The position numbers and the translations under genes are program-made. DNA of 64,000 nucleotides from Psammoneis japonica (taxonomy: Eukaryota), in the NCBI GenBank assembly GCA_008632985.1, contig QPGO01000084.1, positions 1-64,000 of the forward strand. Direction: 5' to 3'. Below, in pieces: positions 1-64,000 of the stretch; the stretch's first letter is position 1; every line of letters begins with the position of its first letter. The notes below the pieces were generated by a model that did not search any database, was not told where the DNA came from, and worked only from the letters and a program-made list of their open reading frames with translations.

Positions 1-1014
1 CCTGCTTCTTCTCTTGCAGTTTTGTAAGATTTGCACAGGCGCTCCACAATTTGGCACAATCCACTGATGTGACCCTCTCTGGATGCGTGCACTCCTGCAC
101 AGAATGCCCTCATTCCCAGCACATTTTGGTGAAATGCCAAGTCTCCGCTCACCAGAGGTGGGCAACATCCCTCCGCGAAAGGCCAGGGGACATCTGCACT
201 GGCATTGTGTTTGTCAAGACAAACCACGTCCAACCTGGTGTCTTCTCTTGTGGTTGCAGAATCTGCTCTGACAGGCGGCAGAGCACACATGACATGTGGG
301 AAGCGGCGCTCCATGTCATTTTTTTGGCAAGCCACCACGATTGCGCCAGGGATTTGCATCGCAAGGTGAGCCGGTGTCTCCACTTCAAAGTCAACCAAGT
401 CCAGTGTCAAAGTCACTTTGTCCATGTGTGTGTCGCAACGGATTCTGTTCTCTTGCACCCACCCCTTCAAACAAGGTTGCAAGCTGCACCTGCGCCGCGA
501 CACAACAATTGAATGCCCGAGAGTTGACGCACATTCTGCTTTTGTCCAGTTTTTTGTGCAAGCTGGATGTCTGGAATTCTCCCGCCCCAACATGGTCTGT
601 TTGCAAGTGTTGCGCTGGCCTTGCAATGCAATGTTGCCTCACCAAAGCATGTCTGGGATCGCCCAAGTCGCGTCTCTGCATTTGCAACATGTTGTCTTGC
701 TCCACTGTTTCTTGCAAAGCATTTGGCACATGTGGCCCAAACAGTTTGTGAACCCCATCCATTCTCAATGTCATTTTGCAGCTGAGGCAGGAAAACATGC
801 ATTCCAGGATGCCCTTTGTTGATGCAACGCATCCAAGGCCACCCACTGTGTTGTGCTGTTTGCAATTGGAGCACAACATGTTTGATGTCAGCCCCATGCA
901 TTTTTTGTTGTTGTTTGCTGATGCACAGATGGGGGGCTGTGATGGGCACAGCTGCTGCGTTGGGCAGTTTTCTGCACAGTCACCAAATCTCAAAATTTCA
1001 CAAGTTTGGCAATG

Positions 1015-1218
1015 GGCCGTGCACTCTCTCTCTTGAAATTTTTGGCATTTTGTTAAATGAAATGATCAAAGATTGTGTCTTTTGTGTGTCTCGTGCTCTT
1101 GAAAGAGATGACGAAATTTCAACGTTCTTTAGAAATGCTGTGGCAAGTGGGGCAACAGGCCGTGCATTCTTTCTCTTGAATTTTTTGTCATTTTGTTAAA
1201 TGAAATGATCAAAGATTG
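1015..1218 (+). repeat. ~60-bp imperfect direct repeat (1015-1075, 1158-1218)
   Basis: ggccgtgca..ctcttgaa..ttttg.cattttgttaaatgaaatgatcaaagattg occurs twice. Confidence 0.85.
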
Positions 1219-1250
1219 CATCTTTTGCACAACTTTTCCAGCAAAAAAAC

Positions 1251-1669
1251 CAGTGTTGACCAATTGCCAGGATCGGCTGCAATCATCCTCACTTTGGTTG
1301 CAATCGCAATTGCAAACTTGATTGCAATGACCTGATTGTCGGGAAAGAGCCGAGGTCACAATCACAGCCAACTGCTGCAATCGATTGCAATCAAAATTTG
1401 AGCTCTTTTTAAGCTGAAATCAGCAAAATGGCTCGATTTCTTTGCCTGCAGCAGGCTTTTCTCTTGCGCAGAGTGCGCTCTTGCGCAGAGAGTGCACCTG
1501 CATGGGGGGCACACCTGGCCGGCGGGGCGACTGCAACCACAATTGCAATCTGTTTGTCAGGCCGTGCAATCACTGTGCAGCTGCAATTGGCCAATTGCTG
1601 TTCCACAGCGATGCAATCGACTGATTGCAATCTGATTGCTGCAGAAAACTTTGCAGTTGGTCAACCCTG
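1251..1669. mobile_element. Non-autonomous hAT-like MITE (419 bp) with 8-bp target-site duplication
   Basis: TIRs cagtgttgaccaattgc and gcagttggtcaaccctg (15/17 match). Identical AAAAAAAC flanks at 1243-1250 and 1670-1677. Internal TTGCAATC/GATTGCAA repeats. Paralogous empty site at ~2879-2920. Confidence 0.85.
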
Positions 1670-1955
1670 AAAAAAACATTGATGAGAAATGGCAACTTTG
1701 CATTTTTCAACAGCTGTGAATTTGGCAACTTTCATTTGCCGGGTCACATTGCACCTCCCTGCTCCATGTTGTTGATTGGAAATGGCGGCATCTGTGCTGG
1801 TCTGTGTGGCCATCTCCACTTTGTGCAGATCCATTTCAGCTGCCTTGTGCACTGTGAATCTCTGTGTGATGTCATTGACTGTGTGCAATGCAGCTGAACT
1901 GGCGCAGAAGAAGAGACTTTTCCTGCCAGGTGTGCGGTGCACCAGGCTCAGTCAT

Positions 1956-2820
1956 CAAATGCAAAAACAATTGTGTCTGGGGGCAACTGTGGTCTCAGCA
2001 ACTTTCAAGCACTCAAAATCATTGTGCATTGACACTTTTTGCAGTGCAATGTTGTTGCTGACATGTTGCACCAAATGTAAAAACAATTGTGGCTGGTGGC
2101 AACTTTGGTCTCAGCAACTTTCAAGCACAAAGTCATTGCATTGATGCTTTTTGCACTGCAATGTTGTTGCTGACATGTTGCGCCAAATGCAAAAACAATG
2201 GTGGCTGGGGGCAACTTTGGTCTCAGCAACTTTCAAGCACAAAGTCACTGCATTGACACTTTTTGCACTGCAGCGTTGTTGCTGACATGTTGCGCCAAAT
2301 GCAAAAACAATTGTGGCTGGGGGCAACTTTGGTCTCAGCAACTTTCAAGCACAAAGTCATTGCATTGACACTTTTTGCACTGCAGTGTTGTTGCTGACAT
2401 GTTGCATCAAATGCAAAAACAATTGTCGCTGGGGGCAACTTTGGCCTCAGCAACTTTCAAGCACAAAGCCATTGCATTGACACTTTTTGCACTGCAATGT
2501 TGTTGCTGACATGTTGCACCAAATGCAAAAACAATTGTGGCTGGGGGCAACTTTGGTCTCAGCAACTTTCAAGCACAAAGTTGCTGCATTGACACTTTTT
2601 GCACTGCAATGTTGTTGCTGACATGTTGCGCCAAATGTAAAAACAATTGTGTCCAGGGGCAACCTTGGTCTCAGCAACTTTCAAGCACAAAGTCATTGCA
2701 TTGACACTTTTTGCACTGCAACATTGTTGCTGACATTCAGGAAGACATGTTGCACCAAATGTAAAAACAGTTGTGGCTGGGGCAACTTTGGTCTCAACAA
2801 CTTTCAAGCACAAAGTCATT
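1956..2820 (+). repeat. Tandem repeat, 112-bp unit, ~7.5 copies (partial copies to ~3140)
   Basis: caaatg(c/t)aaaaacaattgtggctgggggcaactttggtctcagcaactttcaagcacaaagtc recurs at 2072, 2184, 2296, 2408, 2520 and 2632. Confidence 0.95.
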
Positions 2821-3354
2821 TTGCAACCTGCTCTGAAATGTCCACACAAGACCAATGTTTGGCACCTGGTCCTGCCACTTTTCCAGCAAAAAAACGTTGG
2901 CAAGAAATGGCAACTTTGCACTTTTCAACAGCTGATCCACTTCAGCTGCCTTGTGCACTGACTCTCTGTGTGATGTCATTGGCTGTGTGTGATGCAGCTG
3001 AGCTGGCAGAAGAAGAGACTTTTCCTGCCAGGTGCACCATGATCAGCCATCAAATGCAAAAACAATTGTGGCTGGGGGCAACTCTGGTCTCAGCAACTTT
3101 CCAGTGCAAAGTCATTGCAAAACAATTGTGGCTGGGGGCAACTTCATTTGGCCAGCCCGCCACTCGCCAAAGCACAAAGCTCTTGCATGGCACAGGTTGC
3201 AGCTTGCAACTTGCAACCGAGAGGCTGGAGAGACTTTTTGTCCTGCAGGTGTTTCAAGAAGTGATGACAAATTGGGTCCACAGCCATTGACCAACCTTGC
3301 TCAGTGACACTGAAGGTGACCTCCTCACACTCAGGTGCGTGCGCACTGCGGTGG

Positions 3355-3545
3355 CTGCTCTCTGCAGCAGCCTCTGCTCTGCTGGTGGAGTGGCAGCCAG
3401 CTGGAGCAGCTGCTCTAGAGCTGGAGCAGCTAGAGCAGCTCTCTGCTCTCTAGAGCGAGAGCACAGCAGCAGAGAGCACAGTGGAGCAGCAGCTGCCACT
3501 CTCTTGGCAGAGAGCAGAGAGCTGCTCCAGCTGCTCTCCACTGCG
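3355..3545. repeat. Low-complexity CAG/CTG/AG tract
   Basis: Runs of gcagag, ctgctc and cagctg; the only TA left is in CTAG. Confidence 0.7.
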
Positions 3546-5513
3546 GCACTGCCGCACGCAGGAGCGAGGCAGTCTTCCCTGACTGCTGCACCGGTGCAAG
3601 AAGAAATCCAGTGTCAAACATCAAAACGCCATCAAGCATCAACTGTGCCATGAGAATCAACTTGTCTTCTGGCAGCAACAACAACAATGCAACGCACCTG
3701 GAGTGTTGACTTAGAGGGAAACAAACGCCAATATCCGAAGAATGTTGTGTTGGTGTCTGTTCATCCAACAACAAGGGAGTGGTGCACTGCAAGAGAACAA
3801 TTGAAGCAACCACTGGTTTTCCGAGGGTTCCATCAGAGGACAGCATCGTGGATGATGAATTGAATCCAGATGAACATCCACCTGACCCTGGCCACCCGAG
3901 CCAACATTTCTCACATGAGAACTCAACCAACGCTCAAAGATGTCAATTTCTGTCGGGCGGGGCCCATTTGTCAACACATTGTCCATGAATGGGAAATGAT
4001 GGGGCATGAAATCAAACTGTGCAATGAAGCACACGAAGAAATGTGCAAGCTGTCGGTTGGTGAACGGTGAAATCTGGCAGAGGTTGCCGTTTTAGATGAG
4101 GATGAAATGGAGGATGGATGCGGACACGTCGAAGAAGACATGCCAACATTTGCATGTCAGGCAATCCGCGCCAAACAAGTTTGCTTTTCCGTGGACACAT
4201 TGATCTGTGAAACTGGCCTTTGTCCGTACTTTCACGACAGTCATTTTCCCGAAATGAGCCACAAAACACGACAGCAATGCCAATGCTGGCATCACCGCTT
4301 GCTGCACGCCGATTCCAAGCATGAAAGCCATCGGCCCAAGCATTGCAAGATGAGGAGGGATGCTCTAAACTTGCATTTGCAGGTGTGTTTTGCAGCAATT
4401 TATTCTTTTGCGGTCATCTTCACAAACAAGCATCCAACTTCATTGGCCATTCCTTTGGTTGCACCAGAATGTCGCAGGAAATGACAACTCTCTGCTCTGG
4501 GCCTGGCAGGTGCAACCCCTTCCCCTGGATTTGATGTCACAAATCCTGCGAGCAGCTGGTTTGGTGTTGGGATGTTGTGGCAGCGATGGTGGCTTTCCCC
4601 AAGCACTTTTTTCACTGTGCCTGGGACGGGCTTGGTTGACCAGAGCAACAGCCCTCGGGTTCACAACCTCGGCCATGGTGGCCATGGTGCAAATGACGGC
4701 ACGTGTTGGAGAGCAAGTGCGTGCCACCGACAGCTCGCTTTGTGCAGTTTTTGGTGCAAAATCCACGACAACGGAAACGCAGTGTTCGCGGCCTCATTGG
4801 TCGGTGTTCGGAATGAGGCAATCGTGTGATGTGATTGGCTGCGAGGTGTGTCCAATCTCATGCAAATGACAATCATTGAAGGGAAAGTTGACGATGTTCG
4901 CGGCCGTCAGTGCCGGCACATTCTACACAAATGATGTCCACTGCTGCTCGTGAGTCGGTGTGTCTTAGACCACATCCTTGAAAGAGACAACGAAATTTTA
5001 ATGTTCTTCATCATGCTGAGGCATGGATTTCCCCTGTTTGGGACACAACTCCAAACACTGTCGCCAAAATGGGGATGATGTTTTGTGCCATTGTACAGAT
5101 TGATGATAAAATTTTTCACACTGTTGCCAAAACAGGCAAGACATTTTGTGCAATTCAATTTTCATTCCTGTGGACATTTGCAATGACATGACATGCAGTC
5201 CATGTGTGTGTGCTCCTCACACCAAAGCACTGTGTCACATTGATGCAACACATTGTTGTGTTTGGGAGACCGGCGGTCCGGACCGGCCCCGGTCCGGACT
5301 GGTGACACAGGGCCCCAAGTGATTTTGTAAAAACAATCCAATTCTTTTACAAGACCTGTGTGAATGATTGCAGTCATTTCACCAGGCTCAGCACGTGACA
5401 GTCATTGCATGCCACGCAGCGCCGGACATCAGGACTCCATCTCAGGGTTCCCTTTCAAGTGGCTTTGCTGCAACCACGCACAAGAAGAGCAACCACAACA
5501 ACAACGTTCCCAG

Positions 5514-8329
5514 ATGCCGAGAGACCCTGTTGTCAATTCCACAGCCACTCTTGGGATGGCTGCAACAATGGGTGCTTCCAATCAGCCCACCTCTGATGCT
5601 TTTGCTTGGCAGTCAAGATTGGTGCGTGCATGGCACGATGACCTGGGCGACAAAAACGACAACACGAAAAAAGCAATGAAGATGCAAGCTTCAATTAAAG
5701 CCTTGTCACACCTGCATTTTGACGATGTGTTTTAATTGAAGTTTTTGTCTGACCCTCCCCCCTGCTTTGATTGAACTGTTCTGGCAGACATGAGAGCCAG
5801 TTCTGTGCAATGTGCGACCACAAGCATGCCTCATTGGGAGACACCAAGCATTTGACTGATGAGCAAAAAGCCTTCATTTGCCTGTTCTGTTGTGCCTTTT
5901 GCCCACAAAAGAAGAGGGGCAGGGCAAACAAGGGAAAGACCAGGCCAGTCTTTGATGCTGAGCTCTTTGAAAGGGTGACAGCCAGCAATCCCTTGACTGA
6001 TGCAGCAGACGTTCCAAATGAGACCAAGTTGCTTGACCAGACAGAAGCTGGCATCAGTGAACCCAACAAGCTGTGCCAGTGGGATGTCGTCAGCCAGGCT
6101 TGTGCATCCCTCAGACGACTCTTTGTTTGTCAGCTTGAAGTGCATGGCAGAGATCCTGCTGTGTTGCTTCGTTGTGAAAATTCCAGCAGCATCAAACATC
6201 TTAAAAGGCTTGTCAAGTCCAGGAAAGCACAAGAGCAACAGAAGTGGATGGATGAGAAGGTGAGTCTCAACTGAAATGTGTTTCGCATGTTTGTTTAAAA
6301 CCGCCAACCTGTGCTGTGTTGTCCACCTCAACCCCGGTCAGGTTTCTGGCAACGTGTCACCCCACCTGGCCCATGAGCGTTTCCCAGAGTTGGAGGAGGG
6401 TTGCTGGGAAGATTTTCTGGGACATTGCCAAATCAAACAGCTGCTTTGAGCAACCGTTTCTTCATGCTACAAACAAAAGCAAGCCATTTCCCGTGGGGAG
6501 TCTCCCCTCAAGGCTGACCTGAGCAATCTTTGCAGCTTCAGCCATCAGGCAAAGAAGGAGGAACAGGCCTGCCTGATGCTCATCATGCAGATGTTCACAG
6601 GCCAAACCAATGGCAAAAGCATGCTGTTTGGCCATGTCACGTGACACAGAGATGTGAGAATGGACTCCATTGGTGCATTGGGTTTTCATCTGCTTGGCGC
6701 GCATCCAAACATGTCTGATTGTTTTGGCTTTACAAAACGTTTTAATTGAACAAACTGTTGCTGCAATCCTTTTGAATGCAGGATGCTTTGAGATCAGCAA
6801 GGAATGGGAGAAGATTGATCTCAAATGGAAGGAAACGTGGTGGAACATCAAGGTCCTTGTGGACTGTGGACGCTCAGAAGGCTGGCACATCCTCTGGAGA
6901 CAGTGCCGATTCACCCAACATGCAGCGCATGTCTCCGTCATCTTACACTGCTTGGTTTGATTGTTTGAAAGAACAGCTTGACCTGCTCATCAACTGCAGT
7001 TTGCACTTTGGACGTGTTGGAGGCACGGTTGAGTTAGAGTTGGAGGAGCTGGAGTCTTGTCTCATCAAAGCTCTTGGAAATTGGGACCCAAGTGTGTTTG
7101 ATGCTCGCTGCTCCACAAAGCTGCCCTCAAAGGTGAGTCAATGCACTTGCGGTGTGGCCTGTTTCACTTTTAATTAAAACTCACATTTTGTTTTAATTGA
7201 ACAATTCCAGGCAATGAGGGTTGCAGCTGGCTTCACAAAGGAGCCTGGAACCTGCTTTGTTTCTCGTGCCCTCTGTCAGCCTTCGATGAGTTGCAGAAGG
7301 AGATCTTTCCTTGGCTGGAAGGCATGGCGGAAGGAGTGACTTGCTGGGAGCACCCCATGGCACATGCCTTTGTTGGACTCTTGAAACAGTTGCGTGTTGT
7401 CATCCTCCAAGATGTGGCGGTGTTGATGCTGCTGGGCCGCACCCATGCCTTGTCTGAGCTTCCTGTTTTCATGTCAGCTGGATTTTTGTCATTTGAGGAT
7501 CAAACGAAGGTTTGCTTGGAAAAGGCACCCCCTTGCCCTGATGCTGGAGAGATCCGTGGGGTGTCAGAGCAGATTCAAAACTTGCACCAGGACAACCAAC
7601 ACAGCCACCAGGAGCTGTTGTCCGCAGTCAATGGGTCCATTGACTGCAACAGAATGATGATGAACAATTTTGCCTTTGCCATTAGAAATTCGCTGTGTGC
7701 AGCTGGAAACAAGCTCAACAATTTGACCCTGGAGTGGTCTCCTCCACTGACTGGGCAGCCATCACACCAGCCAGCAATTGGCGAGTGCTGCATGTCATGC
7801 TGTTTTAATTGAACGTGATTTTAAATGTTGTTTTGAACAAACATTGTTCTGACAAATTTGCGTGTTTAATTGGGGTCATTTGCAGCCACAGGCATGGTGC
7901 CGGCAGCAGGTGCACAGTCTCCCAGCACACAGTCTCCCAGTCCTGGTGTGATTGGCTTTTGACCCCCCAAGTTGAAGGACACAGATTTGGTTCAGATGTT
8001 TTTTTTTGAGGGAAATGCTCCTCCTTTCACTTCTGGCAATGGAGTCAGGCATTTGGAGGAGGACACATCATGGTGTTTGGCATGGGAGGAGAAGGACAAA
8101 AGGACCCTTTGTTGTTGAAAGCAGCTGATGGACATTGATTGTGGACAAAGTGCTGGTTGAGAACTCAGCACACCCTCAAGTTCTGGTCGTTGCCAAGTTG
8201 AATGCTTTTTGTGTCAAAGATTGCAACAAGGCATTGACGACTGCTTTGAAGAAGTTCCCTGAACAACAATGGCACTTTGTCACTCCAGCTGGCAACAGCA
8301 CAAATCAAGGGGAACTGACCAATGTTTAG
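5514..8329 (+). mobile_element. Degenerate Crypton-type tyrosine-recombinase transposon gene (Ndc10-II-like domain plus GCR1_C-like tail), intron-containing
   Basis: Motifs RGESxLKADLSNL, KTNG..LFG..HRD...IGALGFH, HFGRVGG..E...IKALGNWD..DARCSTKLP [intron ~7133-7210] AMRVAAGF, QKEIFPWLE..AFVGLLKQLRVVILQD..HAL.ELPVF, and LEE..W..W near 8070. Multiple stops and frameshifts. Confidence 0.8.
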
Positions 8330-8458
8330 AAGTTAATGTGTGTGTTGAGATTTGCTTGAGAGGCTGGTGACAGAATGGCAGAGTGCATGAAAGATGATCA
8401 CATTTGCTTTCTACGTCGTCCTCTTCTTGCATTTCAAACAAAACCCTTTGGCAACATT

Positions 8459-9730
8459 TTAAACAAAACCAACCACTGGATCAATTGAAACAACACCACT
8501 CTGAACACATTTGAACTCAATGCCAGTGTTGTTTAGAATGTCCGCCACTTTGACACAGATTTTGCCATCTGGCTTGCCTTGCCCATTCCAAATGTTGTCA
8601 TTGAGAATGTTGTGTTTGGCATGAGTGAACCATGTGGCATGTTGTGGGGCAACACCACCTGCAGAGCTTTTCTTTGCAACAAACAACTTGCCCGCCTTGT
8701 CAAATTTGTCATGGTCCTCCTGGCTGAGGGCCTTGGAAACCTTGGATGGGGGGCACTTCTGACACACTGCGATGTGCGCAAACAAGAAGCCCCTCACATT
8801 CTGTGGAATGTTGGGCAGTGCATTGCGGTTTTTCTTCACCTTGCCACCTTCCTCCCACGTGGTCTTGGGCCACTCAATGCTTTCCAGCTTTCTGAAACCA
8901 GCAAGAGCCAGATCTTTCTTGGGGGGCATGTTGAAGGTGCTTGCAGCAGCGCCAGTGGCAGCATTTTTGCTGCCCTTGCCAGCCTTGGCACTGCTTGCAG
9001 CACCAGCGGCAGCATTTTTGCCACCCTTGCCCTTGCCATCCGTGGCAGCATCCTCCTTGGCCTTGAGGCGTGCAGCATTGCAGGCACTCTTCCTTGTGGG
9101 CTCAACGGCAGCACGACAGGGTCTTGTCAGATTCTTTTTTCAGTCAGTCGTTGACTCGCTTCCGTCAAAAGCTGTTGGACATTGGCAATGTGTTTTTGCC
9201 TGTCGATTTGCAGATTGCCAAGTGTCTTTACAAAAACTGGGCTGTGGTTGGCAAAGTTTGGATTGTCAGATGCCTGCGCCGGGATCAGTGGGATGAAATG
9301 CCTCTCTTCCATCTCGCTGCAATTGCACCGCCAGTCTGTCATGGAAGGGAGGGAGACATGTTTGTTGGGTCTCTGGTGTCTGGCAGAACCATGTGGTCAA
9401 TGGCACACTGACCCACACAAGAGGTTGACAACAGCATCTTTTGGTTCTGGTGCATGCCAGGCATCATCAATGAGCTCATGAAAAGCTCCTCAATGATGGG
9501 GTGAGAACCACACAGATTGCTCAGGTGGTGTTTGGCAGCCTTGCTGCAGCAAGGGTGTGGCTGGAATGCCACAGCAATCTCAGCAAGGGTGTTGATGACA
9601 GCCTTTTTGGAAGCAAGGTGTGCCATGGTTCTGAGATCTGTGCAACTGCTTTTTTGATCAAAAATCACACAGAGTTCAGCGCTCTTCTTTTTTGTCCTGC
9701 AGCCCAAAAAATCATCTTTGGCACTGAGCA
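8459..9730 (-). pseudogene. Decayed ORF of unknown function, convergent with the Crypton gene
   Basis: Protein-like frames (MPPKKDLALAGFRKLESIEWPK..., Ala/Lys/Gly-rich linker) with no Tyr, broken by frameshifts. Confidence 0.35.
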
Positions 9731-11129
9731 ATTGTCTCTGCCAGGATCAAAAATGATGCTGGCTTGATTGGCTCACAAACCAAATGGGCCACAATGGGAT
9801 TTGCAATGCAGAAGAATTGAACCTTGCAAGGCCACCATGACCCGACACAAAAGAAAGAGCGAGATGGCCAAGAGCGACGACAAGCACATGAGGTGCAGAA
9901 CAACAGCGCTGCTGGAGAAAGAAACCAACTTGTCATTTGATGGCGCAGCTGTTGATGATGTTGGGTGACTTTGAATCAACAGGGGGACAATGCACAAGCC
10001 AAGATGATCACACAGATGTGTCAAAGGTCAGCGCACGATGTGCTGACGACAATCAAAGCAAAAAAAGATCATGTTGAGGCAGAGGAAAGCTCAGAATTCA
10101 ACAGCATGATGGTCGTCAAGTGAGCTTTCAGGAAAGACAAAGATGTGTGCATGGAACTTGTGCCAGAGTCTGTGGAGCAGAATGTGGTTGATGGTGGCAC
10201 TCTTTTGTTGGATGTGCCCAGCACCATCATTGGCTGAGACCAGTGGGACACGTGCTCGAGCGACCCATTTGCTGACTCTGCGTGCCCCAGTCAAAGCCAG
10301 AGGAAGCAACAAAAGAGCAACATGACCTGTCAGACACACAAGAAGACAGCCACGGCCATGGCAACTGTGCATCTATGAAACAAGTGAGAGGAGTCTCGTG
10401 GACTCGGTCTGCAGATCTGTGGGATGCGGGCCTCTGCTCTCGCCGGCGATAGCCAACGCAGGTCCGTCATTCATCAGCAGGTTTCCTCCCCACTGTCACA
10501 ATAACTCACAACAGCTGCGCACCAAAAAAACGAATTTTCTTTGACACAATGGCAGCACTCAATGGGAGTTGTTGTGTGGTGAGGACGTCATTTCATCAGT
10601 TGTTTAGGTGTTTACTTTTCATCAACAATTGCATCGAAAACGAAGAAAAAAACATCGCACATCATCTGCTCTTTCGACACACGATCGCCTAGTCTTTGCA
10701 CCAAGATCAAGGACCAAGGTCGCTAACTTTGCCCCTTATCGTCCATAGAAGTTGTTGATTGTTGATCATTGTTTATTCTTCGATAAAGTCTCTAAAACTT
10801 AGAAGAAGAAGAGCAAGTTTTTGTCCTCTTTTGCAGCTCGCAAAGCTCATGGTTTCATCACGCCAGAGAACATTGTGCAGAACAAGCATCGCGGTACTGC
10901 TTCTATCCGCGTAGTCACTCAAGGCTTGATGTATTCACCACAAACAATGGCTGGCTCAGCAAGAAGTATACCAAGCTGTTTTTCCGTGCATTTTCAGTGA
11001 GTAGAAGAAAACCCGTTTGCCGAGAAATCTGCGCTACAAACGTCTCGGCTCTACAGCGACACGCCCACTCAAAGTAGAGAAGGAGACGCCATTTACGAGC
11101 GTTCTGGATACAAGCTTCCCTCTGCAAAT

Positions 11130-11530
11130 TGGTATCCCAGTCACATTTCCAAGGCGGAACGTCAATTGGCGGAAACGCTACGAGCCGTGGATGTCGTTGT
11201 CGAAGCGCGGGATGCTCGTGCGGCACAAGCCACGTCTCATCCGCGTGTGGCAGAATGGTGTTCGGGCAAACCTCGTATTGTTTTATTGACCCATGCCGAT
11301 CAAGTGTCTCCGCTGTCCATTAGGTGTCGAGCGGTGGGATGGAGAGGTCAATGCACAAGTAGCCAATCAAGCACAGCAAGCAAAAGATCAACTAACCAAG
11401 GGCGGTAACTACAAGACACCAAACTCGAGTAGTTTGTCGCCGGTTCACTCGGTCTTCTCTGTCAACGCCAAACAGGGACAGGGGATTTTTGCCCTTGCAA
11501 AAGTCACTTACAAGGCGGGCGCTATGTTCA
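11130..11530 (+). pseudogene. RbgA/YlqF-like (DAR) circularly permuted GTPase, N-terminal fragment
   Basis: WYPSHISKAERQLAETLRAVDVVVEARDARA..TSHP...KPRIVLLTHAD, then a frameshift to VFSVNAKQGQG. No G1 motif follows. Confidence 0.8.
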
Positions 11531-12298
11531 GAAACGACGTCAACGACGTGGCCCGAGGAACGACCCTGCGAATCGTCATGGAGGACCAAGATGCAGCGTT
11601 AGTCTTGGCTTAGATGAAAAGCCGTTCAGATTTCAATATTATCCTAGGTTCTGGATAAGGCACAACCCATGCGCTCACATTTTTCCCGAGGACCGCGATC
11701 AATGCAATTCGGAGAGGCGCTACATTGGACTCATCATTTGAAATTTCTCTTCTCATACAACCATCGTGTACCTAATACCATGTTGGCTTTCCTTGAATTA
11801 CCCGAAGCACCTCCGGCGAGAAGGAACTCAAGCGCTCCGTCGCCGTTTGAGGAAAGACGAGCGCGTCCTCATTTCCTTGACGACGAAGCGCCTGTTGATT
11901 CGTAGCGTGTCGGGCAAAAGCACCCCGCGTCACATTAATTCGTGTGACATTGCCAAGGCCAAGGTTCCTGGTGACAGATGGCTCGGAAGTAGAAAGAAGG
12001 AAAGCGTGTGCAAGATTCACATCAAAATGGCGGACTCCGATGCCAAGCACGAGATTGTCTTTTCGCAGCCCGGAGTGTCTATTATGAATGCTACCGAGGA
12101 ACGCGACGACTTTTTGGAGCTTAGGCAGCAACACATGGTGGATGCGCAAGCTAGTTCGCCTGCCAAGGCGTAGTTGGTATTTTCGTGGGAGATCATAAAA
12201 TGTATTCATATTTATAGTAGGATGTCGCTCGTGACTCGTGGAGGATAGCAGAAGCATTGATTTGTGCAGCATGAGATAAGAGAAATATATATCTAGGC

Positions 12299-13641
12299 CT
12301 ACAGTATTAACTCTTTAGTTTGGGTGGCATAGAGGAGCGCATGACTAGGCCTTATCTGTATTGCTAGATAGTGCCAGTGTTCATTCGGCAGACTCACCGT
12401 ACCGGAACTGAGACGAAGTATTTCCCGCGGACTACAATACGAAGGCGCACAAGAACATGGATACTCCAGTAGAAGCAAACACAGAGAAACTAATGTATTG
12501 TAAACTGACACGCGAGAATGCAATCTCAAGGAGAGGGCGACAAGGGTCGCTTGGTCCCTCTTTTCTTTTCTTTGTATGCAAACGTCTGGATAATTCTTGA
12601 AGAACCAAAATACAAAGTCATCAGTGCTTCGCGTACTTGCCAATAGGTAGGGCCAAAGCGCCAGTGGCACGTCACGGCGACGAAACAGGCCTCGCCCAGC
12701 TTCGTTCATGGCACAGTAGCACTGCATTTCAACGTCTTGAGCGCTATTCTGGGCGGTCACGTCTGTCAGTGAATAGGAGGCGTTGCCAATGTCCACGGGC
12801 GTCGTTGTCAGGTTCTCGCATCCTGCCAAATAAAGACCCCGCAAATTTGGCAACTTAAGATTTCTGTAGGGATGCGAGTCAATTGCTGGCATCGCGAAAG
12901 GTCCACGCTTTCTAACTTTGCCAGCAAGCCGATTTCCACCGGCACTTCGGTGAGCCCGGAACAACCAGATAAATTCAAGGTTCTGAGACTCACCATGCGC
13001 TGACCAAACTCAAAGGGCAAAGTGATGAGATTCCTGCAATCAGCGACATACATGCAACCTAGCTCAGAACATGCACCAATATCGGGAGGCAGTCTTTTCA
13101 AAGCAGCTTATTCCGCAACCGTGAAAAGGAATAAGTTCTTCAGCTTCCCAATCTCCGATGGTATTTCGGTAAGCCTTTCACAGTTGCGCAGCGACAATTC
13201 TCGAAGCTGCGTTAGGTCGCCGATTTCAGGAGGCAATCGATCCATGATGTTGCAGCTGTGCACCAACAATGCCCGCAGCTTTTTCAACTTTCCCAATCTC
13301 CGATGGTATTTCGGTAAGCCTTTCACAGTTGCGCAGCGACAATTCTCGAAGCTGCGTCAGGTCGCCGATTTCAAGAGGCAACCGAACCATGATGTTGCAG
13401 CGGACTATCTTCAATGTCTGAAGCTTTCTCAGGAGTCCAATCTCACGAGGCAGCTGGATCAATCGTTCGCAATCCCGAAAAACGACATAACGGCGTTCTC
13501 ATATCCAGTTTCTAAATTCTGATGCAACATTCTGACAATGAGTCGATCAAATTCGGCCAAGTCTGTCATGAATTTCAAATCAAATTCTGATTTTCCGGTG
13601 GCCCGAGAAAGAGCTCTGAGAGTCTCTCGAGACTTATCCAT
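12299..13641 (-). pseudogene. Leucine-rich repeat protein, frameshifted
   Basis: LPxEIGxLxxLxxLxLxxCxxL repeats spread over several frames. Diatom-type C-terminus MNEAGR...PLALWPYLL. Internal duplication 13141-13400. Confidence 0.8.
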
Positions 13642-14039
13642 AGCTGCACAGTTGGCGAGAGCAGTTGGAAGAAGAAGGGGTCGAGATTGGATTCGCTTAC
13701 TGTGTCGTCGCTGTCCTAAAGCGTCATGGTCTTCTGCTACCTGCTACCTTCGACCTTCGACGACGTGCCGCGGGACTGCTCGAGCTCTCTAGCTAGAGAG
13801 AGCGCGCACAAAAATAGTGAGCATGCACTCCACTGGCGACAGACAGGCAGTTCGTAGAAACTTCATAGGCAGATAGGAATTTACGAGCTTTTTGTACTGA
13901 AATAAAAACTCTGGAGGCTACAGGATAGATCAGGATTTAGACAAGTCGAACCCCAGAGTAACCGTTCAACACATTCATTTTTATTCATGCCATTCATGCT
14001 GTTCATCCTAAGGAACCCCAAATTTCCAATTGACCGAGC

Positions 14040-54255: not shown

Positions 54256-54329
54256 TGGCTGCTTCCGCTCCCCCCCCCCCCCGCACAAATGATGCACGGT
54301 CGTGGAGCTGCTTCTCTCAAGTAAAAAAA

Positions 54330-57300
54330 AAAAATGGGTGTGCTTCTCTGTCAACGCTCCTGAAAAGTTGCCTCTCTGCTTGGACAAAGAAAAAAAGAAG
54401 CGGGGCCCTGGTCTCTCTCCTGGTCTGGTGGCACTTTTTCTGCGCGTGCTTCTTTCTTGTGATGCTGTGCTGTGTGCCAGCTGCACCTGTGGCCTGACAA
54501 GGGTGTGTCTGCGCGCGTCAATGAAAGTCAATGAAAAAAATGCTTTTTGAGATTTGGTTGCAAAACCAGCTCCTCCAAAAACAAGGGGAGCTGCCCTGAG
54601 TTCCTTGCATGATCTCATCTTTCTTCTCTCCTTGACAGAGAGCACCCTTCTCCAAATGACCACACAAGGGAAATGTGGGTGCCAGCCAAAACCAAGAGGC
54701 ACAGCTCAGCTCAATTGTGAAGTTGGAAAAGCTCACATTGCAAAGATGTGCAGGTGCAGAGCTTGCAGCTGTGTTGCTGTGGAGAGAAGAGAGAGAGAGA
54801 GAAAGAGGAAAAAATGGGCAGAAAAGTTTGTGGCAGCTGCCTCGGCCAGCCATTTGGTTTTTCCTCAAATGAGAGGGCTTGATGGGATGCTCCAAAAGGG
54901 CACATTGGTGCTGCAAGAGCTGAGAGCATGATGCACCCATGAAAACAGCTGCAGGCATTGGCAAAAACTGCAAAGATCCAGGCGAGCTGCTTGAGTCATG
55001 CCCAGAGCAAGCAATGTGACGTGTGATGCTGGCTGGGGTGCAGCAGGCATCTGGGCTTGTTGTGCTGAGATGCAAGCTTGCAATTGCTCAACTTGCTTCA
55101 ACCAATGCTTGCTCAACATTTTGCAGCAGCTGTCTGATGACCCTGGTGACTGGCAACTCTGCCATCAGCAACTTTGTGTTGAGACTGAGTGCTCTTTTGT
55201 CAACATTGTGAAAAAGTGGGTGTCACGCAGTCAGCGCAGCAGTGCAGTTTTTGTCATTCATGCACATGAAAATTTGAGCAGGTTCTGGCGCCACAACAAA
55301 TGCATTGGTGGGGTTCTTTGGTCATCTTCTTGTTGGCATGGTGTCAGCAGTGTCTGAAGACAGGCAGCAAGCACTTTGTCTTGATGGGCAGAGCCTGGCT
55401 GGATCACCCAGCATCTGCAAAGGGACAGATCAGAATGGTCCTCCCACTGGGGATGCCTGGAGCTGATCTGAAACAAAGGGGCACAAGATCCCCCAAGGCA
55501 ACAATGGGCCACCTGGGCCATTGCAACACTCATTCTCGAGTTGACACAGCCACATGCTCAAGAGCGTGGTTTTTGCCCCTTGTTGGCTGGCCACAATGAA
55601 GGGAGCAGAATGACAACATTGCTCAAGGCTCAAGGCTCAAGGCAGGGCTTGAAATCCTTGTTCTTTGTCTTGTGGCTTGATCTTGACAATGGCTGCCCTT
55701 GAGCTTGTTGAAGAAGAAGCATCTCTGTGTTCTTGCCTGGGGATCCATGTCATCAGAGTTGTCTGGTCTTCCTGAGATGCAACTGACAGGGTTGATGAGA
55801 GGTTTGTCAGGCACACAAGAAGGCTTGCAAGACTTTTCAATGGGGTCACCTGGGTTGCCACACATTTTATCATGTTGTGAGAAGACTGGGCCACTCTCCT
55901 TGCACTGAAGGGCATGGTGTGGCTGATGGAGACACCACAGCCATGTCCATCTCACAATGTTTGGGGAGGTCTTCAGGTGGAGTGCAGCTGCGCTGCAAAT
56001 GGAGCACACCATGGAACTCTTGGCATGAGAGTTCTGTGCCATTCAGCATCAATGGGTGTGCTGACAGCCATGCTCCAGTTTTGGCATGGTGCTGACATGC
56101 ACTTGTGGCTTCATTTTTACAACCATGTGTGAGTGTTTGAAAAGTGCGCATGATGTGATTCACAGAATTCTCCAACAATGCATGAAGACCTCGGGCAATG
56201 ACAATGTTGTTTGCAGTCTTCAGGAAAGGAAAAATCTGAGTGCACACTGATGGATGTTGACTTTGCACAGGTCAACTCACATGATTGAAATTCACAACCT
56301 GTGTGGTGACCAGTGCCCACATGACACACATTGATGCCTTCAGTGCTCTCTGGACTCCAAGCCAGCAAGGAGCAGAGAGAACCTCCCACAGTGGTTTTGA
56401 CATGCATTTCAGGGCAAACTTTTAAAATGTGCTCATCACCCATCTCTCCTTCCTCACTGACTGGGGCCTTGCGGTGCAGTGCAGAGTTGCATGATGGCAC
56501 CAGAGGGAGTGGAGAGAGAATGGAAATGGTTGCAGCACTGCCATTGATGCACCTCATTGTGTCCTGGCAGCAACCTGTGTGCAAATGGTGCATCAATGTG
56601 CTGGTTCTTCTGATCAAATGAAAAAATGGAGACATCTTCTTAAAACAAAGAAAAGATGAAGAGAGTTGAAGTGCCACTTAGAAACAGCTTTTCCACAACA
56701 GTTCAAGGCACCTTTCAATGAATCTCACACAGAATTGACATGCTGGTTAAAAAAGAAAACTGGAAAGGAGCTTTGACAGATGCTGGATGGGAGTCCTGAG
56801 AAGGCACACCATGTCATGTGTTTGCCATTCACTCAAGGCATGCATCGCATTGAAGCAGACATGGATCATGCAATGGCACAGCAGCTCCCAGTTGCCCCAT
56901 CCTCCTTTGTGACTCCAGCCACCAGGTCAAGGAATGGAAGCTTGATTTTAAGTTTGCTGGTGAGAAGCACATTGAAAAGTTTGCTCCACTTGCCAAAAAG
57001 AAAAAGATGGCCACCATGTGTCCCATGGTTTGCTTCAGGAGGGGGAGAAGCAGCACACTCATTGAGGTTCCCTCTCTTGCCTTCTTCCTCACCCACATTG
57101 TGCATGTTGGCTTGTCAAAAGATCTGCAGGATGAAGAAAAAGATCATCATTGTGTGAAGTGATCTGTCCTTCAAGATGTCAGGAATGATCGCACCATGAC
57201 AATCAAGCCGAGTTTGCTGCCGACTGAGATTGACAAACTTGGTGCCAATGCAGACTGTTTTAAGTGGCAACAGCAATGATTTGTTTCTCAACAGGCTGAG

Positions 57301-58000
57301 CTGAAAGCCAAGGCATTGTTGCATGGTGACAAAAAGCATGAAAGTGGCTCATCTCCAGAAGGACAACTGTCACATTCTTTGCACACAGAATTCTGCACAG
57401 ACAAACTGGGTGGGCAAGACTCTGTCTGGCATTGTCAACCACATCAACAACAATGACATGAAAACATCTTGTGCAGAGCAAAAATGACACATTGCCTCCA
57501 CAACACCATGAACAACATCACACCTCATTTTTTCCTCAGTGTCAGCAGAACAAATCATTTTTGTGTGTGGTGGCAGGTGGTGTTTTCCATGATTGGAGGA
57601 GTCCAAAGTTCCCAACTCCTTTTTTGTGTGACACATCCAAACAATTTTTACACAGACAAACAGGCTTGCCGTTCTTGCACTGAAATTGCTGTGAGTTTGA
57701 GTCCCTGTGTGACTGTGGTCACATTCGGCACTGCACAGGTCCTGTGCAGATGCTTTGCGCAAAGCGTGCCACACATGTGCAATGGCCAGTTGTGCCCCAC
57801 ATCTTGGTTGCACGGAACTCCTGCAGCCTGTTGCAGGTCTCACAGAACCAGGAGCTATATTTTCCACTGTGTGCTTCTGTGGGATCAGCATCATCATGGA
57901 CAGCCTCCTGCACAGATGCAGGAAAGCCGCACCAACAATGGCGGGATGCAGCAGGCATTCCCTTTCACTCGTCCCTGTGAAGCATCGCGATTCGCTGATG
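54330..58000. other. TpA-depleted domain IV
   Basis: TA is nearly absent (survivors mostly TTTA/TTAA/TTAG) and the core is CpG-poor. Normal genes lie on both sides. Confidence 0.9.
55400..56110 (-). mobile_element. CRE-like non-LTR retrotransposon 3' fragment, copy 2 (more decayed)
   Basis: TGAWLSAHPLMLNGTELSCQEF, CKPSCVPDKPLINP, MSVAMAQVAHCCLGGS...QISSRHPQWED; homologous to 45.1-45.9 kb. Confidence 0.8.
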
Positions 58001-60080: not shown

Positions 60081-60243
60081 AAGGAATAGTTCATTACCTA
60101 AGACATGCATGGTAATTTGAGATGGGGGCATGATTTGAACTTGACACTACAGTAGCGCTATAACAAATGTTGGTTCTTGATGCAACATACGTCTCCCAAT
60201 ACACTCTCCCCTATTTCAAGTACTAAATGAGCTCCCGCCCTCA

Positions 60244-62399
60244 TCAATCGTCGGTCTTGTACGCCTGCATGTAGTACAAATTGTCCAGATCGAACTTATC
60301 CATGGTGGCGTTCAAATACTCACGAGACTTCTTCTCGAGATTCCAGGCGTCCGAGAGTCGTCCTGGTACCCCGTTGGGAGGGTTTTCTTTGTTTTCAATT
60401 TCTTCCCGGACTTGATCACGGCAATGCCTGGCCAGCGGGAATTCAAAATCCATGAAGTTGTCAAACCACCACATGGAAGCCGTGACATCGCCGTCGAGGT
60501 TGTAATCAGAAGGGACAATCACTGCAACGTCGTCCATCCCGTCATAGCCTCCGGTTCTCCCATGGATAACCTGCTCTGTGACATCCGTACAACTGTCTTG
60601 CTCACCTCTTAAAGAGTCAATGTTACGAATGCCATCGGATGAGCGATTGCGCGAGCGCTCAATTTCAAACGATACTTTCAACAGCCTCGCCAATCCCTTG
60701 AGATTACAAAGATCCGAGCGGCGGATTCGGTCGTAGTTGATGCGCGTCTGATCCAGAGTCCTGGAACAGCAACAGCAAAACCACGATAAGCGTACTTGGC
60801 CAAGCGCAGCTCATGGGAAGGTTTGTTTGGCCACGCATGGAGTGGGTTCAAGATATTGACGCCGTGTTGAACAGCATGGAGCCATCTTGGGGTCACCCAT
60901 ACGGATGTTCCGTCGTATAGGCAGCAGCAACAGTCGCAATCAAAACCCAGAAGGACCTCGGCAGGAGACTGATACAGCCGAAGAACGATTTGAAGCGTCT
61001 GCATTTTCCTGCTATGCACCCAGTCATGGATGGTGATAACTCCACGACTTCGTACAGTCACCTACGCTTCATTGTCCCCCGTCAATGCGTACCAGATGCG
61101 TCGCGCAATTCGATTGGCCTCTTCCACGTTGCTGCAGTGTAGGAACATGTCAATGTCACTTTTGTTGCCCCACCAATTGGCCGTGCAAATGCCAGAACTG
61201 GAGGTGAGACCACGAAGCACCGCTCCACCAGCAATCACGACAGGCTCCTCACGAAGCACTTCCGATAGCCTATGGAGCATATTTGGATGCTCACGATTGA
61301 AGTTTGTCTCAAACTTGCTGAGTTCTCCTACCGTGACTGGTGTGTTGTCCGTTGCTTCGTCCATGCGAAGGTTTTTCATGAGCAAGCAGTGAATTTCACT
61401 CGAATGGCTTTCTGGTTGATAGGTCAACGGCAGGGATGGAGGTCCGTCATCTGGACAAAAGAGAGGAATTAGTCCCCTATGAGGATCAAAAACGGCAGCT
61501 GATCCAGCTGCAAAGGCCTCACGAAGTACATCCTCCTCCTTGCGAATCTTGATAGTCTCCTCGTCGAGGAAATCGTCGATATCAATCTTGGGGCAGGTGA
61601 TTGCTCGGACAAGCTCGTCAAGACCATAGAAATCAGCTTCAACGACAAGAGCCTCTCGGGCCGCGGCTTCTTTCGGGAGAGTCACTACAGTTCCGACGCG
61701 GAGAAAGTTGAGGATGTGCGGAAAGTGCGTACCGTCGCGACAAATAAAGTAGGCGCCTTCCTTGTCTTTGCAGGCCGGGTTGAGGTGCCGTCCAGAAACT
61801 AGACTCTCCAAAAACGACCCTGGAAATCTTGAAAGCGTGTCACGAGAAGCGGTAAATTTGTTGCCTCCAACGTTGAGAGCAACGACAGAGTCAAGCTCCA
61901 TTATCGATTTAACGTTCTTGTCGTCCGATACACAAGCCGATGGTGCTTGTTCAGCCTTGACAAACTTGACCAGATCCCGATAGCGGCTAAATCCGTCAAT
62001 CGACCCACCGTTTCGAATAAAGTCAATCACGTGAAGGAGTTTTCGTACAGAAACGGGAGAAATCGATGAGAGACGCTCGAAATCTTTCTCTTCCAAAAGT
62101 CCAAGATCATCGACCGTCTCAACCCCGAGCTCTGAAAACAGAATCGAGAGCTCCGCAGCGTCAGTAGATTCAAAACGAATTCCAAGAAAAGAAAACAGAT
62201 TCATGAATGGAGTGGATTCGGTAGGAGACGACTCCGGCGTTGAGTCCGAGCTATCGTTCTCCTCAAACTGATGACGATTCGCATCGGAATACTTGGAGGT
62301 GGGAGTCACAAGAGCGGCAGTCATATTTCCCTCTCTGCTTTCTTCCGTGGGAGCGGTCAAGGATGGTGCTGAGACGTTCGTTGGGATTGGAGTAGTCAT
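60244..62399 (-). pseudogene. SAM-like + KCTD-type BTB/POZ + nucleotidyltransferase-like protein with an internal stop and a frameshift
   Basis: LNVGG..FTASRDTL..FICRDGTHF..ILNFLR..EADFYGL; IAGGAVL..SDIDMFL; LQIVLRLY.SPAEVLLGFD.DC; RLAKYA.RGF. In-frame TAG at 61062-61064 and a frameshift near 60750. Confidence 0.75.
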
Positions 62400-62809
62400 T
62401 ATGATTCGACAGCGCGTCCGCAGTACGCTATCAACAAAGCCGAAACAAGCAAGACGCAACTCGAAAGTGTAAGTATAAGAGAACTAACATCTCAAGTCAC
62501 TATTGAATCAAGTCTTACATTTACCAATCGATAGCTACAGAGAGGGAACCTATGGTATTGTTGCGTCGCGTTGGAGTTTTGATGCAACACAGAAATGACA
62601 ACAACAACACTCAACACGCTCTACAGTACAGTACCTATCTGCGGCGGGCGGCGGCTCGTCGTGTTGCGTGTGCGCGCCATATTTTGGGCGCCGTAGAACC
62701 GTATGTACTGTCGCACCATAGAGTTGGAACACAGTCGCCAACGACGGATAGAGCATGATGCTTCCTCTACCACTCTCTCTGCTCTAGCTGCTTCCTCCGG
62801 TGAGCGATA

Positions 62810-64000
62810 ATTGTCCACGAGCAAACACCGTGTTGTCATTTTTGGGCCGCACATCTTGGTGCTGCTTCTGCTCAAAATGGCTCGGAGGGAAAAGCATCCA
62901 CGACCCACGTCAAAACTGACGTGCAATTTGTCACTGTGCAGTGCAGCACCAGCACCTTGTTTTCGAAAGCCGATTCCTTTGAACAAGCACAGGAGCCAAG
63001 GCCATTCGTGCCCCACTTGCTGTGCTGGTGCCGAGAACTGTCTGCTTTAATGTTGTTGGGCAGTTGTCATTTACATTGCTGACACAATGAATCACTTTGC
63101 CGACGAAGATCAACAGACTCAACATGTCGTGAGTGACATCATGGGCAAGACGAGATGGGAAAAGACTGACCAAGACTTCTGCAACAAGTTGAAGAATGGA
63201 GCAAACGAGCTGACATCCTTTCCGAACACGATTTGCACCCATTCTTTATAAATCAGGTTTTCGGCAAGCCAAGGAGGTTGTCATCAAAACCGATCGCAAC
63301 TGCGTTTTCTGGTTCCATCCTTTTTCGACGATGCTGTGATTTCTCACGATGAAGCCACATCCATCAAAGTTGTCCGAAAAAAGTCCCAGTCCAGCATGCC
63401 ACCATTGGCTGTGAATGGACAAGATTGCAGGAGTGGCAGAAGTGGGAGGCTGACATTGTTGCCAAGTGGAACGACTGCAAAGGGGAACACAACGCAGTGC
63501 TGACGGAGCAATCCGACTGGCAAGCCATGGAAGTGAGAGCTCATGCAAAGGGAGCTGCCACTGTCAAGACTCGCTCTGAGGCTGACACATGCAATCAGGA
63601 GCTGCTCACCATGGCAACCTTGCCTGATGAGGAGAAGTCGTGCACTGCCAAGTCAAAGGAGGAACTCCAAGCAGTTGTTGGAGCCTCAAGTGCTGCTGAG
63701 CTCAAAGATGTGAGAGTGCTCGACATCTCACCAGTTGCACGCATGATTTCAAGAACAATGGCATTGGTGCAAACCTTGACATTTGTGGTGACACCCACGC
63801 ATTTTACCTTGGTGAAAACAAAGGACGGAAAGCTCAATTTGCTCCATGTTCTGGAGGCATTCGGCTTCAATGTCACTTTGGAGGCAGCGGAGTCAGAGCT
63901 CTTTGGCACAGACGGACAAGGTCAAGAAGCTGCTCTGTCTCTCTGCTCTCTCTGGCTGGAGGGCCTGCTGCACTCAATGAGGTTGTGACTGCCAACGTTT
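62810..64000. other. TpA-depleted domain V (continues beyond the window), with a decayed + strand ORF
   Basis: TA survives only at tttaat, tttaca and tttataaa/ttttac, while CpG is retained near the edge. Tyr-free protein-like ORF at 63425-63988. Confidence 0.85.

Follow-up and report, generated by a model that had tools for sequence, protein, structure and literature searches.

What has removed almost every TpA dinucleotide from half of a 64 kb stretch of diatom DNA, and left the TpA of the neighbouring genes in place? The question is raised by 64,000 nt of contig QPGO01000084.1 of Psammoneis japonica; this whole stretch is referred to as the window, and the analysis covers one window and one sample. 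Five sharply bounded blocks, about half of the window, are nearly free of TpA and rich in TpG and CpA. The analysis establishes the signature of this loss, together with its direction, localization, sequence context and independence from coding constraint. The blocks are probably the long-term footprint of a real, heritable and locally targeted mutation process that acts on silenced, non-functional DNA. A sequence-only reading of the window had proposed such a process as an undescribed kind of genome defence directed at transposon regions. The claim of novelty does not stand, as the same TpA-only hypermutation has very recently been shown in one lineage, the chlorarachniophyte Bigelowiella natans (Mettrop et al., bioRxiv 10.64898/2026.01.13.699255). 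A literature search for the signature found only that account and nothing for diatoms. The present case is thus a second lineage for a known kind of process, and a far more saturated one.

Five blocks depleted of TpA

Blocks were delimited with 1-kb sliding windows, maps of TpA positions and block totals, and dinucleotide content is expressed as the observed/expected ratio (O/E), TG/CA being the mean of the TG and CA values. The five blocks are as follows.

Block D1, 1-10600, leaves the window at the left end; 49 TpA, TA O/E 0.07, CG O/E 0.37, TG/CA O/E 1.76
Block D2, 14010-16800, the cleanest case, single-copy by k-mer depth; 6 TpA, TA O/E 0.03, CG O/E 0.12, TG/CA O/E 1.91
Block D3, 31500-46400, a mosaic of sub-blocks that differ in CpG decay; 62 TpA, TA O/E 0.06, CG O/E 0.36, TG/CA O/E 1.71
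Block D4, 54330-58000; 11 TpA, TA O/E 0.05, CG O/E 0.16, TG/CA O/E 1.82
Block D5, 62810-64000, leaves the window at the right end; 5 TpA, TA O/E 0.07, CG O/E 0.54, TG/CA O/E 1.61

Together the blocks sum to 33,154 nt, or 52% of the window, and contain 133 TpA where about 1,392 would be expected at the frequency of the gene islands between them. The pooled TA O/E is 0.06 in the blocks versus 0.61 in the islands; the four islands individually have TA O/E of 0.55-0.65 and CG O/E of 0.89-1.10. The domains that had been described from the sequence alone are confirmed in number, extent and sharpness, and the estimate of about five TpA in 14102-16800 proves to be exactly 5. The distribution of TA O/E is bimodal. 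Among 128 windows of 500 bp, 63 have values below 0.15, none falls in 0.15-0.2, and two fall in 0.2-0.3. Block edges are steps of less than 250 bp, TA O/E being 0.64 over the 250 bp of island next to the edge and 0.11 over the 250 bp of block next to it. Spreading of TpA loss into flanking genes was considered and dropped, as there is no spread at the edges and the apparent gradients are an effect of window overlap.

GC content is nearly the same in blocks and islands (0.487 versus 0.476). The frequencies lost from the blocks (TA 0.038 and CG 0.034, together 0.0719) are close to that gained as TG plus CA (0.0704). If island sequence has 90% of its TA and 63% of its CG converted to TG/CA, the TA, CG, TG and CA frequencies of the blocks and their GC content are matched, and AT, GC, TT, CT and GA remain about 0.01 off. 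This mass balance, as well as the context model and the rate ratio given below, takes the ancestral composition of the blocks to be that of the islands. The stop triplets of the blocks show the same signature, with 66 TAA and 33 TAG compared with 808 TGA.

Direction of the change

The direction of change was read from relics of known genes inside the blocks, at positions where homologues carry tyrosine (Tyr). Amino acid composition, with no Tyr and much cysteine (Cys) and histidine (His), was rejected as evidence of direction. The argument is circular, since any frame of TA-free, TG/CA-rich DNA has the same composition. Four relics could be used.

6300-7809, plus strand: Crypton-type (tyrosine-recombinase) DNA transposon protein relic; tblastn high-scoring segment pairs at 6300-7500; TA O/E 0.11
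31174-32045, plus strand: EXO1/XPG-like nuclease pseudogene; Pfam XPG_I 1.7e-9, human EXO1 structures E 8e-4
32817-33410, minus strand: Snu114/EFTUD2 (U5 small nuclear ribonucleoprotein GTPase) C-terminal pseudogene fragment; PDB 6qw6_5C E 8e-34; two in-frame stops
34221-35087, minus strand: CDK/CMGC-like protein kinase pseudogene; Pfam Pkinase 6.5e-15 and 1.5e-9; three in-frame stops

The Crypton relic has 58 homologues at E<=1e-3, and the NDC10_II family is present in 12 of 12 that were tested, with GCR1_C also in three. Against 56 of these homologues, placed by tblastn, six columns have a majority of Tyr. The relic has Cys at two of them (TGC), His at two (CAT), Tyr at one and phenylalanine (Phe) at one; Phe is kept at 11 of 17 Phe columns. 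In the kinase relic (120 homologues) two Tyr columns have become Cys and leucine, too few conserved columns for this relic to be retained as a direction test by itself. The EXO1-like relic has Cys and lysine at two Tyr positions of human EXO1, including a change of APY to APC. The Snu114 fragment has His at three, alanine at one and glutamine at one of five Tyr positions of human Snu114. Its arginine positions have changed to His, Cys, glutamine and, twice, a stop, which is the CpG route.

Pooled over the four relics, 15 Tyr positions have become Cys or His in nine cases, remain Tyr in one and are another residue in five. Tyr is kept at 1 of 15 positions versus 13 of 24 for Phe (Fisher p 0.005). 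The same Crypton family is not TA-free elsewhere. All 22 related metagenomic loci have TA O/E of 0.41-1.32, in a scan that demanded an intact motif and that heavily mutated copies would therefore escape, and the 56 homologues that remain when P0121 and P0124, two hits in multiple stretches, are left aside mostly contain 1-3% Tyr (range 0-3.6%). A metagenome scan with the Crypton relic itself as query gave no match.

Copies that have diverged from one another provide a second line of evidence. Two sets lie within the blocks.

45078-45920 versus 55400-56100: diverged paralogue pair, about 70% identity by blastn
1956-2820, in D1: 112-bp tandem satellite; Tandem Repeats Finder 7.6 copies, 91% match; TA O/E 0.04, TG/CA O/E 2.16

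In the paralogue pair CA<->TG is the commonest dinucleotide difference, found 36 times, and there are 166 transitions versus 80 transversions. Alignment of the satellite units reveals CA<->TG flips between units and a new GTAA in two of seven. The satellite consensus is already TA-free, which indicates amplification after TA loss. Variant contigs over D1 were assembled from sequencing run X1, which carries 0.91 of the sampled words and probably derives from the material that was assembled; no library type is recorded for it. Their substitutions are A>G 57, C>T 60, G>A 50 and T>C 60, and each transversion type is found 3-13 times. Adjacent CA<->TG double changes number nine among 40 of the 302 rows. 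These contigs represent paralogues and not points in time. Since paralogues differ by CA<->TG, change appears to have taken place after duplication. Taken with the Tyr positions, these comparisons support a change from TpA to TpG or CpA, the direction that had been put forward earlier.

Sequence context and strand

The loss is restricted to TpA and spares ApA. It affects both strands, with 3,760 TG and 3,468 CA in the blocks. These two dinucleotides follow one another at random within each block (runs z -1.9 to +1.0), as they do in the islands. Strand-coordinated, kataegis-like clusters of the type left by processive single-strand deaminases were looked for and rejected on this null runs test.

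The TpA dinucleotides that survive are not a random sample. TTAA makes up 38 of 133 in the blocks versus 71 of 1,292 in the islands (Fisher 7e-15). A context model gives per-strand rates, according to the base 3′ of A, of 2.08 for T, 1.89 for C, 1.16 for G and 0.29 for A. It is preferred to a uniform rate (likelihood-ratio test 150.8, p 2e-32) and accounts for the counts of the 16 contexts (chi-squared statistic 16.7 on about 12 degrees of freedom). The preferred site is 5′-TAY (Y, pyrimidine), which is equivalent to 5′-RTA (R, purine) should the change begin at T. Since TpA reads the same on both strands, A to G at TAY and T to C at RTA are not separable from sequence.

A small strand asymmetry was also observed. 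TG exceeds CA on the plus strand in four of the five blocks (skew 0.040 over all TG and CA of the blocks; binomial p 0.0006), and the islands are even (2,280 versus 2,275). This could reflect the direction of replication.

CpG decay within the blocks

The blocks are also poor in CpG, with an O/E of 0.33 versus 0.94 in the islands. Loss of CpG to methyl-CpG decay, which the sequence-only reading had not noted, accounts for about half of the TG/CA excess, as judged from the CG share of the lost frequency. The two losses are nested. In 500-bp windows, a CG O/E below 0.5 with normal TA is found only once, at a block edge; a TA O/E below 0.2 with a CG O/E of at least 0.6 is found in ten windows. 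Along D3 the CpG O/E varies from 0.02 to 0.85, and one sub-block displays the difference between the two losses most clearly.

33501-37500, within D3: TpA nearly gone and CpG largely kept; TA O/E 0.09, CG O/E 0.73

Here the ratio of -ln(survival) for TpA to that for CpG is 7.5, so that per-site loss of TpA would have been about 7.5 times faster if the starting composition was island-like. With growing distance from the block edge the CG O/E falls from 0.60 to 0.34, 0.23 and 0.13, whereas TpA loss is complete up to the edge.

Most of the block DNA thus resembles the product of methyl-CpG decay, in that CpG O/E is 0.02-0.4, TG/CA has been gained, and CpG-poor windows are confined to the TA-poor blocks or their edges. 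Methyl-CpG decay, however, cannot remove TpA, is about 7 times slower in 33501-37500, and weakens toward the edges where TpA loss does not. As a sole cause it was rejected, because the TpA loss is larger and, as the ten windows show, partly independent. CpG decay co-occurs with TpA loss and does not explain it.

A proposed targeted process at TpA

In the process proposed here, T:A would be changed to C:G at the palindromic TpA step, which would yield TpG if one strand is struck and CpA if the other is. Single sites would be struck independently on the two strands, with TAY preferred and TTAA the last to go. The process would be several-fold faster than methyl-CpG decay in the same blocks and would halt within about 250 bp of neighbouring genes. 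It may act in place on chromosomal DNA, guided by chromatin or by an epigenetic mark, and may serve as a defence. Action in place on silent chromatin is suggested by the CpG decay in the same blocks, by a block edge that is located inside a gene (see below), by the changes that followed duplication, and by the precedent of B. natans. The TpA step is weakly stacked, and perhaps an enzyme flips one of its bases out of the double helix there. The candidate that is tentatively favoured, with somewhat less than even confidence, is an adenine deaminase that would flip out the A at TpA, the resulting hypoxanthine being copied as G. Bacterial TadA naturally acts on the U-A-C of a tRNA anticodon loop, and early adenine base editors preferred YAC. 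Both properties would fit TAY.

The B. natans precedent comes from mutation-accumulation lines, in which 231 of 302 nuclear single-nucleotide mutations were in integrated nucleocytoplasmic large DNA virus (NCLDV) and virophage regions. Of these, 230 were A to G or T to C, all at TpA and detected by Illumina sequencing, and the rate was about 1000-fold over background, in some lines only. The genome has 124 clusters that are TpA-poor and CpA+TpG-rich, and an ADAT2-like deaminase was proposed as the enzyme (Mettrop et al., bioRxiv 10.64898/2026.01.13.699255). As far as the preprint's account goes, the two systems are alike in that T/A is changed to C/G only at TpA to give TpG or CpA, and in that the change is limited to discrete regions while the remaining genome (here, the remaining window) is normal. 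They are also alike in a long-term footprint that is TpA-poor and CpA+TpG-rich, and, apparently, in targets that are decayed or foreign to the host, some of them single-copy. The process in the diatom would then be of the same kind, here near saturation.

The two differ in several respects. The host is a chlorarachniophyte there and a diatom here. TA O/E is 0.03-0.07 over half of 64 kb in the diatom, compared with a Rho of 0.45 reported for the NCLDV region. The reported targets in B. natans are viral, and recognizable among those in P. japonica are one Crypton relic, one satellite and pieces of cellular genes, with no viral hallmark by Pfam. De novo events were demonstrated in B. natans, whereas the diatom window presents a long-term footprint only. 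The diatom blocks also have step-like edges, a preference for TAY and CpG decay nested within them, none of which is mentioned in the preprint text as consulted. To that text the diatom adds the TAY preference, the lack of strand-coordinated clusters, the step edges, and a rate several-fold over that of the nested CpG decay.

The comparison with repeat-induced point mutation (RIP) of ascomycete fungi is instructive as well. RIP, too, works by transitions over whole domains, comes close to saturation, inactivates duplicated or mobile DNA beside intact genes and is visible in dinucleotide indices. It changes C to T mostly at CpA and so creates TpA, whereas TpA is destroyed here. As regards duplication as the trigger of RIP, a high-copy repeat of the window is untouched (see below). 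RIP itself was rejected as an explanation, since the expected rise in TpA and fall in GC are not seen, and the description of the process as the opposite of RIP is borne out.

A number of points count against a targeted process that acts in place. A new GTAA has persisted in two of seven satellite units, which is unexpected if every TpA is quickly removed. TA-free sequence of D1 is multi-copy and copies share exact 31-mers; mutated copies have therefore been duplicated, and this also fits mutation off the chromosome or before insertion. Run X1, probably being the assembly's own sample and having no library type on record, is not independent support for the bases. The Tyr comparison has 15 positions only, from homologues at 25-50% identity, and three results (the mass balance, the rate ratio and the context model) presuppose an island-like ancestral composition. 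Given the symmetry of TpA, sequence alone does not reveal the chemistry. Finally, ongoing activity and action in place are presumed from one window and one sample, and a benefit to the host is conjectural.

Thymine as a possible target

The explanation that survives best next to the deamination of adenine retains the same targeted process and changes its chemistry. A TET/JBP-type dioxygenase would mark T in TpA as 5-hydroxymethyluracil (5hmU) or 5-formyluracil, and miscoding or faulty repair would then lead to C. The signature is strand-symmetric, and T to C at RTA fits exactly as well as A to G at TAY. Dinoflagellate transposons are silenced by 5hmU, the product of a TET/JBP enzyme, and 5hmU replaces T preferentially in TA and TC, according to older work cited there (PMC11572971). 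The dinoflagellate mark is thus similar in being placed on silenced transposons of a marine alga and in its reported bias toward the T of TA, but it is a base modification and not a mutation, and a TA to CA/TG footprint is not among the features described in that source as consulted (PMC11572971). A preference for TC is hardly reflected in the blocks, where TpC is only slightly lower than in the islands (O/E 0.97 versus 1.11) and CpC is not raised (0.85 versus 0.90). Furthermore, 5hmU pairs with A, and a high yield of T to C would need an extra step. We know of no oxidized-thymine base of the 5hmU type in diatoms. Thymine chemistry is considered unlikely, although it is the strongest of the alternatives.

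Contents of the blocks and the possibility of mutation before insertion

Less likely still is hypermutation of a mobile or viral intermediate, ahead of its insertion or in the course of it, in the manner of APOBEC3 acting on retroviral cDNA. The block edges would then be insertion boundaries, in keeping with steps of less than 250 bp that show no leakage into the flanks. The multi-copy TA-free sequence with shared 31-mers, and the satellite amplified after TA loss, would also be accommodated. By k-mer depth in X1, D1 has values of 78-1096 versus about 65 for flanking genes. With respect to duplication as a trigger, D1 is multi-copy and D2 single-copy by 31-mers, though diverged copies would look single-copy.

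The recognizable contents of the blocks argue against such an intermediate. Pfam was searched with the 148 block open reading frames (ORFs) of at least 93 amino acids (aa), with six-frame read-through of D1 and D4, and with 98 ORFs of 62-92 aa in D2, D3 and D5; relics shorter than 62 aa in these last three blocks could have escaped. Within this scope (ORFs of at least 62 aa, six frames of D1 and D4), no reverse transcriptase, integrase or viral hallmark was found, and the read-through of D4 gave no family at all. Most of the block DNA is without recognizable content. Five items are recognizable, and three of these are fragments of cellular genes; the Crypton relic aside, there are no genes of replication or integration by Pfam. 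The description of the blocks as transposon regions was therefore too narrow.

The left edge of D3 provides a more direct argument. It is not the end of an element and lies inside the EXO1-like reading frame, whose first 157 nt (31174-31330) keep TpA with an O/E of 0.48, versus 0.12 in 31331-32045. Diverged paralogues, moreover, differ by CA<->TG, that is, by change after duplication, and the B. natans mutations are reported to arise in integrated DNA. An interpretation of D2 as a single element with terminal repeats was also tried and rejected, as only chance matches in TG/CA-rich sequence were found.

Further details of the relics are as follows. The N-terminus of the EXO1-like pseudogene (MGI...) is situated in another frame, and comparison of the ORF with longer proteins gave no match. 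For the Snu114 fragment, a PDB search of 33411-34220 found nothing further upstream in the same frame. The kinase relic matches CDK2-like structures in PDB (9e-12) and has homologues of at most 36% identity, mostly 25-32%; its TA O/E is 0.13 and its CG O/E 0.73. Between the Snu114 fragment and the kinase relic there is a direct repeat of about 140 nt with 79% identity (33623-33949).

The 148 ORFs of at least 93 aa that overlap blocks are nearly all without homologues, and the scarcity of TAA and TAG leads to long open frames. No homologue was found for the longest, 40867-41913 on the minus strand (349 aa), and PDB searches of 14188-14637, 35272-36135, 8462-9139 and 63353-63985 gave no match.

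Gene islands as a control

The islands permit an evaluation of neutral decay, in which TpA and CpG would be lost under a genome-wide mutation bias, the blocks being unconstrained junk and the islands keeping TpA by selection. It is true that every recognizable gene in the blocks is dead. Island DNA outside ORFs of at least 100 aa (5,178 nt in 14 segments) nevertheless has a TA O/E of 0.71, compared with 0.59 within ORFs. As non-coding island DNA keeps TA, the loss is targeted, and a genome-wide bias masked by selection is rejected. Within genes, four of five host ORFs have TpA across codon boundaries no less often than within codons. The empty class between the two modes of the 500-bp windows also speaks against neutral decay, as does a repeat in an island that serves as a negative control.

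18717-19027: miniature inverted-repeat transposable element (MITE)-like element, 311 nt, 44-nt perfect (100%) terminal inverted repeats, in a gene island

This element is not hypermutated, with a TA O/E of 0.69 and a CG O/E of 1.49, and it is abundant. The depth of X1 in the bin 18677-19343 is 3,558 versus about 65, or about 55 copies. Hence either a high copy number does not by itself set off the mutation, or the element is of insufficient length or age. Neutral decay is very improbable in view of these properties. The earlier statement that most transposon relics are inside the depleted domains holds for the one Crypton relic and the one satellite; it does not hold for this high-copy element, and the blocks have no reverse transcriptase or integrase by Pfam.

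As had been noted from the sequence, intact host genes are found outside the blocks and decayed DNA inside. The island genes encode a PP2C, a glycosyl/sulfotransferase (1,380 aa), a Kelch/galactose-oxidase-like protein, a delta carbonic anhydrase, a V-ATPase-H-like protein and a BTB protein. The two Atlas clusters nearest to the delta carbonic anhydrase (scores 0.94 and 0.93) are mostly from Bacillariophyta. An Atlas search with the glycosyl/sulfotransferase gave no information on taxon, an exact look-up of nine island proteins found no entry for any of them, and the long open frames free of interruptions appear unlike genes of B. natans. No transposable element domains were found among the larger island ORFs and 35 further ones, and Rfam and tRNA scans gave no matches.

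Two other repeats are located in the islands. A second small inverted-repeat element is found at about 19089-19228. A 473-bp tandem repeat (2.9 copies, 92% match) is present at 21847-23220, and also at 23290-23592 and 13145-13431, in minus-strand ORFs of TA-normal island DNA. These ORFs have no Pfam family and look like a repeat-domain host gene.

Reality of the bases

A modified base at TpA might conceivably mislead sequencing, base calling or assembly. Such an artefact finds some room in the fact that X1, the only matching run, has no library type on record and probably stems from the same sample as the assembly. A contig of 4,132 nt derived from X1 reads, with a k-mer depth of 64.8, nonetheless matches 13328-17459 with no differences and no gaps. 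It spans the whole of D2 with its left and right borders, and its depth is that of the genes on either side (about 65). Raw error-prone long reads would not yield such agreement at single-copy depth, and an artefact is unlikely for this reason. As a check of the bases against reads, the agreement over D2 and its borders argues strongly against an artefact, with the reservation already made about the origin of X1. The relics, in addition, carry frame breaks, truncations, in-frame stops and CpG-type changes, paralogues hold stable and differing choices of TG or CA, and the B. natans mutations were called from Illumina data. An artefact is regarded as highly improbable. A second run, X2, is labelled 'DNA?' and covers only island parts in 10500-13700 and 18700-20000, with an uneven depth of 8-118; it behaves like transcript-derived data. 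Neither X2 nor a third run, X3, had any coverage within D1 or D2, which is not counted as evidence.

ADAR and Pol-eta both give A to G changes, with a 5′ preference for U/T or W (A or T). ADAR-like A-to-I editing of retroelement transcripts fixed by reverse transcription, or error-prone synthesis by Pol-eta at WA, a candidate named in the sequence-only reading, is the least probable explanation of all in spite of these preferences, as no reverse transcriptase or integrase is found in the blocks by Pfam, TG and CA are near-equal and randomly interleaved as expected if both strands are hit, ApA is not depleted (O/E 1.28 in the blocks versus 1.14 in the islands), which contradicts Pol-eta, and gene fragments and a satellite are found among the targets next to a DNA transposon. 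The 5′ preference of ADAR is also given in the Discussion of the B. natans preprint (bioRxiv 10.64898/2026.01.13.699255).

Implications

A process of this type hides transposons and pseudogenes from homology searches, and few relics are recognizable in the blocks. With TGA as almost the sole stop, gene predictors will see long false ORFs in such DNA and will over-call genes. The presence of the signature in two distant lineages, with relatives that lack it, would open the way to phylogenetic profiling for the enzyme, among ADAT2/TadA-like deaminases and TET/JBP dioxygenases. The engineering of base editors would have an interest in any enzyme able to edit TA in duplex DNA.

If the signature is genome-wide in P. 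japonica, TpA hypermutation would be a recurrent way for algae of the SAR group (stramenopiles, alveolates and Rhizaria) to inactivate resident DNA, and not the peculiarity of one chlorarachniophyte. It can be speculated, as a possibility and with considerable doubt, that the diatom and the chlorarachniophyte share an old, SAR-wide genome defence, in which a natural enzyme edits duplex DNA at TpA, best at TAY, as directed by marks of silent chromatin. Efficient enough to clear a block of almost all TpA, such a defence would thereby also remove all Tyr codons and two stop codons out of three. It would parallel RIP while its chemistry runs the opposite way, and much of the 'dark' repeat DNA that defies annotation in these algae would originate from it.

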